This document shows positions 6,670 through 9,032 of a stretch of DNA of 37,193 nt, one piece after another. The position numbers and the translations under genes were made by a program. The stretch comes from a virus. Taxonomy: Duplodnaviria; Heunggongvirae; Uroviricota; Caudoviricetes. The stretch's first letter is position 1. Each line of letters begins with the position of its first letter. The notes beneath the pieces are model-generated. The model had not been told where the DNA came from and did not search any database. It saw nothing but the letters and a program-made list of their open reading frames with translations. Where the stretch lies: the IMG/VR virus record IMGVR_UViG_2534681832_000017, positions 1 to 37,193 of that record; one strand, 5' to 3'.

Positions 6670-8034
6670 ATGTCTGCATCCCCTCTTGAATCCATGCCAA
6701 ATTCCCTTAGTGCAGAACAAGCTGTACTTGGTGGCTTAATGCTTGATAACTGCCGCTGGGATGAAGTTGCAGATCGTATAGTTGCTGATGATTTTTATAC
6801 CAGTGCTCATCGTGAAATTTTCAGTGAGATGGAGAGGTTATTAAGTCATGGCAAACCGATTGATTTGATAACACTTGCTGAAGCACTTGAACAGAACGGT
6901 AAATTAGAACGCGCCGGTGGTTTTGCGTACCTTGCGGAGATGTCAAAGAACACGCCCAGCGCGGCAAATATTTGTGCTTATGCGGATATCGTTCGTGAAC
7001 GCGCGGTTGTTCGTGAAATGATTTCCGTCGCAAATGAAATAGCTGAAGCTGGATATGCGCAGGATGGCAGGGGCAGCAATGAATTGCTGGATATGGCCGA
7101 GCGCCGCGTTTTTGAAATAGCTGAAAAACGACAAAAGAGCGGTAGTGGTCCAAAAGATATCGCCAGCATTCTCGATGCAACGGTATCTCGCATAGAAGAG
7201 TTGTTTCAGCGACCGCATGATGGTGTAACGGGGCTTGATACCGGATTTACCGATCTCAATAAGAAGACGGCAGGACTTCAGGCGTCCGATCTCATTATTG
7301 TCGCCGCCCGCCCATCGATGGGGAAGACTACGTTTGCGATGAATCTCGTCGAAAATGCCGCAGCCCGTAACGATAAGCCCGTATTGGTTTTTAGCCTTGA
7401 GATGCCGAGCCACCAGCTGATGATGCGCTCACTGGCTTCTCTTGCACGCGTTGATCAGACTCGTATTCGAACAGGGCAACTTAACGACGAGGATTGGGCG
7501 CGGGTTTCTGGCGCAATGGGGATTCTGTTGGACAAGCAGAATATTTTTATTGATGACTCAAGCGCCCTGACACCTACAGAGCTTCGTTCCCGCGCTCGTC
7601 GTGTTTATAAAGAAAATGGTGGTTTGAGCATGATTATGATCGACTACCTGCAACTTATGCGCGTCCCCGAGCTGCAAGATAACCGAACGCTGGAAATTGC
7701 CGAGATTTCTCGCTCACTGAAGGCTTTGGCGAAGGAATTACAAGTACCGGTGGTGGCATTGTCACAACTTAATCGATCGCTTGAACAGCGTGCGGACAAA
7801 CGACCGGTAAATTCAGATTTACGTGAATCAGGAGCAATTGAGCAGGACGCAGACCTGATCATGTTTCTGTATCGCGACGAAGTTTATCACCCGGATAGCG
7901 AAATGAAGGGCATTGCCGAGGTAATTATCGGAAAGCAACGAAATGGCCCAATTGGCACGGTGAGATTGGCTTTTAACGGCCAATACTCACGGTTTGATAA
8001 CTATGCCGGTGCTGACTGGCAAGAGGATTATTAA
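6670..8034 (+). CDS. ban: replicative DNA helicase, DnaB family
   Basis: ORF track (ATG 6670 with GGAG SD preferred over GTG 6664); Walker A ARPSMGKTTFA; DnaB-type N-terminus AEQAVLGGLMLDN; RecA-like C-terminal motifs. Confidence 0.85.
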   Translation: MSASPLESMPNSLSAEQAVLGGLMLDNCRWDEVADRIVADDFYTSAHREIFSEMERLLSHGKPIDLITLAEALEQNGKLERAGGFAYLAEMSKNTPSAANICAYADIVRERAVVREMISVANEIAEAGYAQDGRGSNELLDMAERRVFEIAEKRQKSGSGPKDIASILDATVSRIEELFQRPHDGVTGLDTGFTDLNKKTAGLQASDLIIVAARPSMGKTTFAMNLVENAAARNDKPVLVFSLEMPSHQLMMRSLASLARVDQTRIRTGQLNDEDWARVSGAMGILLDKQNIFIDDSSALTPTELRSRARRVYKENGGLSMIMIDYLQLMRVPELQDNRTLEIAEISRSLKALAKELQVPVVALSQLNRSLEQRADKRPVNSDLRESGAIEQDADLIMFLYRDEVYHPDSEMKGIAEVIIGKQRNGPIGTVRLAFNGQYSRFDNYAGADWQEDY

Positions 8035-9032
8035 TGCAATGGAATGAGGAAAAGCCGATGAACATCCTGATCATTGGGCGAAAATTTGAAGCCATCAGTG
8101 ATGTGAAAACATATACGGAAATGTGGGCTTATAACCTGGCCTGCGCCTTTAGTGAGGCAGGGGTAACATTGCAATACCATCGTCCATATTCCCCTGGCGT
8201 CGAAAGCCCGGAGGATTATGTTGAAGCTGTGTTGACTGCTGCGACCGCATGTTCTGCGAAGGCCATTTTGGCACCAGGATTGAGGTATTTTACTACGGTA
8301 CCCAGGGAAATAGGCATGCAACTGTGTCGCCGATTCTCTGGATGGGTAGCCCAGGTATATGACGGTTCTATGCTGGATTCGGCACCAGTCGATATTACTT
8401 TTACTGTCCGCGATGATACCTGGCGGTACCTGGATAATCCCGGCAGGTTAGAGCGTCATAATCGCTTTAACAAACATGTTGGATGGGCAGCGAATCAGGA
8501 ACTGTTCCATCTGGAAACCAAGACAGACGATGTTCTGCGTATTTTTGTAGACCACGCTGCATTTGATGTTAGTGGGTTTGATCACTCCTTAAGTATCCTT
8601 ATGAACCTTCAGCGTCTGCCCGTTCCGTATGAGGCCAGAACGTTGACCGATGACGGATTGGTTACCATTGATCCGGGGAATATTTCGGTAACTCCATACA
8701 GACGGACGCCGGTACCAGCAACCGAATTTGCAGCTGAATTGCGTAAGAGTGACGTTTTTATCGTTACGCATCCCGAAAGCCTTGGATTAACTGTTCTTGA
8801 GGCGGCAATGTGTGGGGCGTTGATATTAACGCCGCCAGATTGCCTTCCGCCAGATCGCCTGGCTTTGGTGAACCATATGGTTATCAAGTCGCGGATTGAT
8901 TGGGATGAGGTTATTGCTCGCGTTGATCGCGTGAAAAATGCTGAAAAGGTCCAGTGTCACACCTGGTCGGCAATTGCGGAAAAGATGCTTGAAACGTTTA
9001 TCACGCAGAAACCGTCGCGCGGTAATGATTGA
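8034..9032 (+). CDS. putative glycosyltransferase (GT-B / GT4-like C-terminal signature)
   Basis: ORF track; TAATG coupling to ban; C-terminal SDVFIVTHPESLGLTVLEAAMCGALIL resembles GT4 E-x7-E region. Confidence 0.45.
   Translation: MQWNEEKPMNILIIGRKFEAISDVKTYTEMWAYNLACAFSEAGVTLQYHRPYSPGVESPEDYVEAVLTAATACSAKAILAPGLRYFTTVPREIGMQLCRRFSGWVAQVYDGSMLDSAPVDITFTVRDDTWRYLDNPGRLERHNRFNKHVGWAANQELFHLETKTDDVLRIFVDHAAFDVSGFDHSLSILMNLQRLPVPYEARTLTDDGLVTIDPGNISVTPYRRTPVPATEFAAELRKSDVFIVTHPESLGLTVLEAAMCGALILTPPDCLPPDRLALVNHMVIKSRIDWDEVIARVDRVKNAEKVQCHTWSAIAEKMLETFITQKPSRGND

Follow-up and report, generated by a model that had tools for sequence, protein, structure and literature searches.

What does the gene directly downstream of the helicase gene ban do in P1-like phages, and which other gene products does it act with? 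We addressed this question for dbn, a gene carried by a 37,193-nucleotide (nt) stretch of tailed-phage DNA (positions 1 to 37,193 of IMG/VR record IMGVR_UViG_2534681832_000017; "the window" below refers to this whole stretch). The region around dbn is 98–99% identical to Punavirus genomes (P1, P7, RCS47, SJ46 and others), and the window is a segment of a P1-like (Punavirus) genome. An earlier note on this DNA, made from the sequence alone, had described a GT4-like glycosyltransferase gene translationally coupled to ban, and had grouped it with further transferase and phosphatase genes as possible modifiers of phage DNA or of a host glycan. Here we describe the linkage of dbn to three other P1 genes, pmgO, pmgP and pmgQ, in unrelated phages. 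Our overall reading, which we stop just short of calling probable, is that the four genes form a cytoplasmic glycosylation cassette of the lytic phase that acts on a virion protein.

Identity and predicted fold of Dbn

8034..9032, + strand: dbn (P1 Dbn / P7 Glt), 332 amino acids (aa), encoding a soluble, divergent GT4-like protein predicted to be a GT-B glycosyltransferase; Met9 (nt 8058) is the probable conserved start
8748..8828, + strand: nucleotide-sugar signature of the Dbn C-terminal domain, SDVFIVTHPESLGLTVLEAAMCGALIL, aa 239–265, with H246, E248 and E256 (HxE-x7-E)
6664..8034, + strand: ban (DnaB-like helicase), upstream neighbour of dbn and not a functional partner

The open reading frame (ORF) at 8034–9032 is 98–99% identical to dbn/glt of P1, P7 and RCS47 and equal to them in length, and at the nucleotide level ban and dbn are 98–99% identical to P1. 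Dbn is assigned to phrog_2518 (E 8e-239). Full-length identity and the presence of ban upstream place it in the P1 Dbn orthologous group, while synteny on the downstream side (gene 5) is broken by a 1.7-kb insert. The P1 gene is named for its position "downstream of ban" (YP_006544) and is described in GenBank as "possible glycosyltransferase", function unknown; its P7 counterpart is glt, the RefSeq product name is "glycosyltransferase family 4 protein", and the RCS47 entry reads "GT4 family protein". The glycosyltransferase label is thus already known and has stood in the P1 annotation since 2004.

The gene shows the hallmarks of purifying selection. All 81 P1-like loci retrieved have an intact copy, its ratio of nonsynonymous to synonymous polymorphism (pN/pS) is 0.127, and 79 of its 126 polymorphic sites fall at the third codon position, for which reasons we take dbn to be functional; on the first two counts, decay of the gene was rejected. 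A first scan of IMG/VR yielded P1-like loci only, 96–100% identical, and a genome scan with one genome per species yielded 2 dbn loci. The family as a whole is distinct and comprises 372 representatives (50% identity) at E <= 1e-3. About 12 of its proteins, of 520–555 aa, bear an uncharacterised C-terminal extension of ~200 aa.

The assignment of Dbn as a glycosyltransferase is solid because of the fold evidence. An AlphaFold model built with 19 homologues is confident (predicted local distance difference test, pLDDT, 87.7; predicted template-modelling score, pTM, 0.85) and has the two Rossmann-like domains of a GT-B fold. In addition, the signature quoted for this ORF is present at aa 239–265 and includes the E-x7-E of GT4 enzymes in the C-terminal domain (E248, E256). 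Residues H246, E248, G251, E256 and G261 are invariant in both alignments that we made (A1 and A6), and HxE-x7-E is found in 103 of the 105 full-length family representatives. Amino acids 229–315 match Pfam Glycos_transf_1 (PF00534) with E 3.7e-5. Together, fold and motif bear out the GT4-like nature first proposed from the signature, and we regard Dbn as very probably a GT-B glycosyltransferase, as predicted from the model; transfer is probably of the retaining type. Profile comparison of Dbn with sequences of the Protein Data Bank (PDB) gave only a Rossmann-level match to KtrA and a borderline match to PimA, and in NCBIfam none of Dbn, PmgO, PmgQ and Pap had a usable match. No segment of Dbn or PmgO/P/Q attains a hydrophobicity of 1.6 (Kyte-Doolittle, 19-residue window), and Dbn is accordingly predicted to be soluble, with no transmembrane segments.

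As regards ban, the TAA stop of this gene and the dbn ATG have one base in common (TAATG), with an AAGAGG Shine-Dalgarno sequence 7 nt upstream, and the overlap on which translational coupling had been proposed is therefore real. The coupling itself is possible in the window but is not conserved, because nearly all homologues begin at the position of another in-frame ATG, that of Met9 at 8058, which has its own Shine-Dalgarno sequence (GAGGA), because a 101-aa ORF separates ban and dbn in 7 of 81 P1-like loci, with dbn there starting at Met9 (324 aa), and because a helicase neighbour is absent beside every non-P1 dbn homologue examined. The interrupted junctions are on contigs L080–L084, L088 and L089 (for example, L082 9699–10004). 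We therefore read the arrangement as a local junction that carries no functional association. Functional coupling of Dbn and Ban was rejected, their linkage being confined to the P1 lineage and broken even there, and the earlier emphasis on ban was misleading. A scan of 6300–9700 for promoters and terminators returned sites no more numerous than in shuffled sequence.

Linkage of dbn with pmgO, pmgP and pmgQ

16624..17286, + strand: pmgO, MptE-like (DUF115), WaaZ- and sialyltransferase-like; putative ulosonic-acid transferase and cassette member
17184..17809, + strand: pmgP, paralogue of pmgO and cassette member, frameshifted into two ORFs (17184–17597 and 17357–17809)
18480..19181, + strand: pmgQ, predicted GT8-like GT-A glycosyltransferase, with D79-x-D81 at nt 18714–18722

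If ban is not the partner of dbn, which genes are? Outside the P1 lineage, dbn was found in the company of pmgO, pmgP and pmgQ homologues. The phage-like contig L007 has the gene order pmgP > dbn > pmgQ > pmgO, and the lambdoid phage L091 (Cro, Q, GpA terminase) has pmgO > pmgP > 189-aa ORF > dbn > pmgQ, pmgP homologues adjoining dbn in both; these two share with the 37-kb window only the four genes. A 95-kb Citrobacter plasmid-prophage (L090) carries pmgO-pmgP-pmgQ and dbn inside 7 kb on one strand, without ban. A search with an alignment of the divergent Dbn family added ten further non-P1 viral loci, and in 9 of these 10 dbn runs 4–8 nt into a pmgQ homologue directly downstream and is translationally coupled to it, with an MptE-like gene also present in 3 of the 9; pmgQ is the most constant partner of dbn. 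In one locus, L105, dbn stands alone with no cassette partner. Two fusion proteins join the same families, namely P0088 (522 aa; PmgO-like + Dbn-like) and L095 6978–8243 (421 aa; PmgQ + PmgO-like). A further fusion, L173 4931–6010 (359 aa), combines a PmgO-like part with an S-adenosylmethionine (SAM)-methyltransferase. In P1-like phages the cassette is split by the tail/baseplate operon, with one half on either side.

Bacterial Dbn homologues adjoin WaaZ-like/MptE-like proteins in clusters of polysaccharide type (Wza, GT4, O-acetyltransferase, GT92). These WaaZ-like neighbours are homologous to PmgO/P (hhalign 93% probability, E 2.6e-7), and they do pass PF01973. Because of the contiguous cassettes in unrelated phages and the fusion proteins, we consider that dbn, pmgO, pmgP and pmgQ belong together, and it is likely that Dbn works in one cassette with PmgO/P/Q.

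The "possible DxD protein" at 18480–19181 proved to be PmgQ, whose AlphaFold2 model (pLDDT 95, pTM 0.92) has a GT-A fold. Its best Foldseek matches (E 1e-8) are Skp1 alpha-GalT (6mw5), glycogenin and LgtC, with GlyE also found, and a profile match to 6mw5 has E 8.5e-5. D79 and D81 are invariant in 45 homologues, giving PmgQ both the fold and the DxD metal site of GT8 enzymes; it has no direct Pfam match. The DUF115-like pair corresponds to PmgO and PmgP. The Pfam evidence for it is weak (PmgO against MptE-like, PF01973: E 5.7e-5, 23.4 bits against a gathering score of 34.6) and is backed by PHROG (phrog_4603 for PmgO) and profile evidence. The two proteins are paralogues with conserved GSGPS (GxGPS nucleotide-binding) and GYD motifs, and against PDB profiles they give weak matches to Maf and to the sialyltransferase Cst-II (E 0.1–0.4). 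They are probably transferases that use ulosonic acids linked to cytidine monophosphate (CMP).

One could instead suppose that there is no common pathway, that Dbn works on its own, as an accessory enzyme for some small molecule or host protein, and that the clustering reflects shared mobility as "morons". The solitary dbn of L105 would fit this explanation, as would the lack of a phenotype in any single knockout and the place of small-molecule glycosyltransferases (BshA, SPS and tetrahydrobiopterin glucosyltransferase) among the top structural neighbours of Dbn. It is hard to reconcile with two independent fusion proteins, with the dbn-pmgQ overlaps of 4–8 nt in 9 loci, and with the four genes being the sole content common to otherwise unrelated phages, and we consider it improbable.

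The same linkage bears on the proposal that Dbn, alone or with other transferases, protects phage DNA from restriction by glycosylating it. Like Dbn, the phage DNA glycosyltransferases (T4 alpha/beta-glucosyltransferases; enzymes acting on 5-hydroxymethylcytosine or 5-hydroxycytosine, HY126, 9ir0) are phage-encoded and of the GT-B fold. In P1, dbn is also near DNA-metabolism genes, adjoining ban and lying ~4 kb from dmt with its C5-cytosine methyltransferase domain, and phages do have post-replicative pathways leading from a C5-methyltransferase through an oxygenase to a glycosyltransferase (bioRxiv 10.1101/2023.12.21.572611). Known systems, however, require a pathway for the precursor base, and no oxygenase of 5-methylcytosine, hydroxymethylase or ThyS-like domain was found in the ~21 window ORFs scanned, the rest of the genome lying outside the window. 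Nor is the linkage to DNA-modification or replication genes conserved; ban is adjacent in P1-like loci only, the conserved neighbours of dbn are pmgQ and pmgO-like genes, and the partners met at these loci (MptE-like, GT8, O-methyl-, pyruvyl- and sulfo-transferases) belong to classes that typically serve glycan chemistry. DNA glycosyltransferases rank just 22nd and 27th among the structural neighbours of Dbn, after generic GT4 enzymes, and Dbn is acidic (net charge −10). As a substrate for restriction, P1 DNA is a classical case, and the Dar proteins guard it. Lastly, single knockouts from a list that includes dbn and pmgO/P/Q (PMC10695390) form plaques without defect and are unaltered in antirestriction (PMC9024508). 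We thus regard DNA glycosylation, one of the two roles suggested by the earlier note, as highly improbable.

Candidate acceptors of the predicted enzymes

On what, then, might the four enzymes act? The context of their relatives points to the virion. In 5 of 5 prophages examined, non-P1 PmgQ homologues lie inside head/tail operons and overlap structural genes, being placed in the capsid/connector interval, in the head-completion/tail-completion interval or beside portal and capsid. A PmgO-like gene precedes PmgQ in 3 of these 5 contexts, and methyltransferases of the FkbM, TylF or class I type join several of them. In L098, the cassette is located between the tail sheath gene and a tail-lysozyme gene. 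The relatives thus show, in the five PmgQ contexts and in L098, what would be expected of a virion-glycosylation cassette, with genes in or abutting structural operons. Other cassette loci add a pyruvyl transferase, a sulfotransferase, a PIG-L deacetylase or a sugar-nucleotide enzyme. Capsid proteins encoded beside PmgQ homologues were inspected for C-terminal tails rich in Ser/Thr, with a negative result; the small ORFs beside those capsid genes are PmgO-like genes.

In the P1 annotation, three elements precede the halves of the cassette, namely the ban operator (controlled by C1), Oppp (also a C1 operator) and LPpmgL (a late promoter). Because these promoters are C1-repressed or late, the cassette genes are lytic-phase genes, and lysogens are probably the wrong material for lipopolysaccharide (LPS) profiling. 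No Wzx, Wzy or Gtr-type genes, flippase or polymerase was seen, and Dbn and PmgO/P/Q are unlike a seroconverting Gtr/O-antigen module, with its membrane proteins (GtrA flippase, GtrB, a polytopic Gtr-specific transferase) and its expression in the lysogen.

Glycosylation of a virion protein best fits the structural-operon embedding, the lack of membrane or flippase genes and the lytic regulation. In the mechanism that we propose, dbn, pmgQ, pmgO and pmgP would be expressed in lytic growth, the four enzymes would work one after another in the cytoplasm with host nucleotide sugars, and a short glycan would be assembled on an acceptor that does not require a membrane flippase. The likeliest candidate for that acceptor is a head or tail protein, an assignment on which our doubts somewhat outweigh our confidence. 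More broadly, we tentatively suggest that P1 and many unrelated Proteobacterial tailed phages and prophages might carry a previously unrecognised mobile virion-glycosylation cassette. Its core, in an equally tentative outline, might consist of a PmgO-like gene and pmgQ, often with methyltransferases, wedged among capsid, connector and tail genes.

Known systems offer parallels. Cytoplasmic protein O-glycosylation, as of serine-rich repeat (SRR) adhesins (GtfA/B, Gtf3/GtfC and the GT8 enzyme GlyE), of flagellin (Maf) and of Skp1, uses the same combination of enzyme folds, and there the acceptor protein is assembled or exported after modification. Indeed, structural matches of the cassette proteins include Gtf3 (3qkw), GtfC (4w6q/9htx), GtfA (4pqg), GlyE (5gvv), Skp1 GalT (6mw5) and, weakly, Maf (5mu5). 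The cassette differs from these systems in having no sequence-level orthology to them and no evident serine-rich substrate gene. Phage-encoded virion glycosylation has a precedent in mycobacteriophages (Freeman et al. 2023), where, as summarised in PMC12619734, capsid and tail-tube proteins bear glycans. The likeness lies in phage-encoded glycosyltransferases and methyltransferases (the latter in relatives of our cassette) tied to structural genes; the difference lies in the Proteobacterial hosts of the cassette and in the enzyme families, which are apparently different.

The alternative that has to be taken most seriously is remodelling of the host envelope, and the modification of a host glycan or receptor, as the earlier note had speculated, is a live rival. 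According to this explanation, the cassette works during lytic growth on the cytoplasmic side of the inner membrane, where it modifies lipid A-core or some other glycan carried on a lipid. The P1 receptor is the LPS core, and an added 3-deoxy-D-manno-octulosonic acid (Kdo) or hexose could mask or truncate it, so that superinfection would be curbed or fewer progeny would be lost on cell debris; we judge both the general proposal and this specific form of it to be unlikely, without being negligible. GT4, GT8 and WaaZ are precisely the classes of core transferases (WaaG/WaaB for GT4, WaaO/WaaJ/LgtC for GT8, WaaZ for Kdo III), and these enzymes are likewise peripheral and lack transmembrane segments. 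The identifiable hosts are all Proteobacteria, which are Gram-negative, making LPS a possible target, and the bacterial Dbn homologues lie in surface-polysaccharide clusters. Yet no NCBIfam Waa equivalog was matched at cut-off, and the phage genes, unlike those of the host, are under late/lytic control in structural operons. Being C1-repressed or late in P1, they would be silent in lysogens, and there is little LPS turnover late in infection. The relatives are also translationally embedded among capsid, connector and tail genes, unlike independently expressed morons, and this embedding together with late/lytic expression speaks against classical lysogenic conversion.

Several observations weigh against virion glycosylation by the cassette. 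The host range and the polysaccharide-cluster setting just mentioned are among them, since the latter suggests glycan rather than protein acceptors. At the level of the enzyme, Dbn differs from the retaining GT-B enzymes of CAZy GT4 (SPS, BshA, PimA/PimB', GlgM, WaaB/WaaG) in being compact (~320 aa) and in scoring below the Pfam gathering threshold (23.8 bits against 26.4), and PF00534 misses most of its relatives, matching 4 of 43 distant ones at E <= 1e-3. By sequence inspection, the Arg/Lys phosphate-binding motif of GT4 is not obvious in Dbn, and the family carries its own GWAAD and DH motifs in the region where it is usually found. In P1 itself the cassette flanks the tail operon and is not embedded in it. 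The pmgP gene of the window has lost one T from a T6 run near 17326 relative to P1. Either this is a sequencing error in the homopolymer, or the gene has been sporadically inactivated, in which case the cassette is incomplete in the window; pmgP is intact in 70 of 73 P1-like IMG/VR loci, and L059 and L081 share the 626-nt length. Any function of the cassette must be conditional, because the knockouts have no plaquing phenotype, and in knockdowns by CRISPR interference dbn and pmgO/P/Q were all non-essential. Finally, P1 virion glycosylation has not been reported, and the string "glycos" occurs zero times in the P1 virion proteome paper.

Other genes of the window and implications of the grouping

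17791..18483, + strand: ppp, lambda-type Ser/Thr metallophosphatase between pmgP and pmgQ (Metallophos, E 9e-16)
20818..21324, + strand: pap, HAD / PNKP-type phosphatase (HAD_PNKP, E 3e-12)
765–3806, + strand: dmt, bifunctional Dmt with C5 and N6 methyltransferase domains and an intein
23461–23946, + strand: 161-aa ORF with a marginal Methyltransf_11 (SAM-methyltransferase) match, E 0.0056, below cut-off
9033–10735, + strand: complete immI-like module separating dbn from tail gene 5, in place of the 46-bp spacer of P1
9159–9211, + strand: a1/b1 target sites of the immI-like module
9280–9365, + strand: C4 antisense RNA of the immI-like module (Rfam 70.7 bits); an icd-like region is also in the module
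9631–10665, + strand: Ant/KilAC antirepressor of the immI-like module

The grouping proposed at the outset had been wider, and had been offered as an unusual density of group-transfer enzymes. That density turns out to be standard P1 gene content, annotated since 2004; pmgO, pmgP, pmgQ, pap and dmt are all standard genes in the P1 annotation. The grouping holds for dbn, pmgO, pmgP and pmgQ and fails for the HAD phosphatase, correctly recognised as such and now identified as Pap, and for Dmt, which never co-occur with them elsewhere. Homologues of pap, ppp and dmt are absent near the non-P1 dbn/pmgQ loci examined, and ppp is absent from the cassettes of L007, L090 and L091; with no co-occurrence in any other locus, all three were rejected as cassette members. 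PADLOC gave no match for any cassette protein, ppp or pap, and thus no support for a role in defence or counter-defence.

The "two or three DNA methyltransferases" reduce to one bifunctional Dmt and a doubtful candidate. The latter, probably the third methyltransferase that had been counted, is the 161-aa ORF at 23461–23946, whose identity as a methyltransferase is not established; Ead/Ea22-like proteins are encoded on either side of it (22727–23464 and 23943–24716, + strand). The Dmt of the window is longer than that of reference P1 (1013 against 754 aa). Its C5-cytosine methyltransferase half is interrupted at approximately aa 77–418 by an intein (Hint_2, LAGLIDADG_3 homing endonuclease, intein splicing domain), after which comes the D12 domain, an N6-adenine methyltransferase. 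The intein-bearing allele is also present in P1 record OP279344 (100% coverage, 98.9% identity), and in P7 and several other P1-like phages about one third of dmt is missing.

The insert that separates dbn from gene 5 is a 1.7-kb c4/icd/ant module with only ~81% identity to the P1 immI region, and we therefore take it for an unusually placed copy, either heteroimmune or a second one. An extra tRNA-Tyr (GTA) was found at 4561–4647 (+ strand), between tRNA-Asn and tRNA-Thr; the P1 annotation of the same region has Asn, Thr and Ile2 (CAT) only.

What is new here is the treatment of dbn, pmgO, pmgP and pmgQ as a single testable glycosylation grouping with relatives in the virion operons of Proteobacterial phages. 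If the reading is true, virion glycosylation would extend from mycobacteriophages to a classic coliphage and to phages of Gram-negative bacteria generally, and phage proteins of a widespread family now labelled "hypothetical" would gain a function. Phage-made glycans on P1 particles, if they are borne there, would bear on phage-immune recognition, particle stability and receptor biology. They would also matter wherever P1 or a P1-like plasmid prophage, a frequent vehicle of resistance genes, serves as a tool or a therapeutic.

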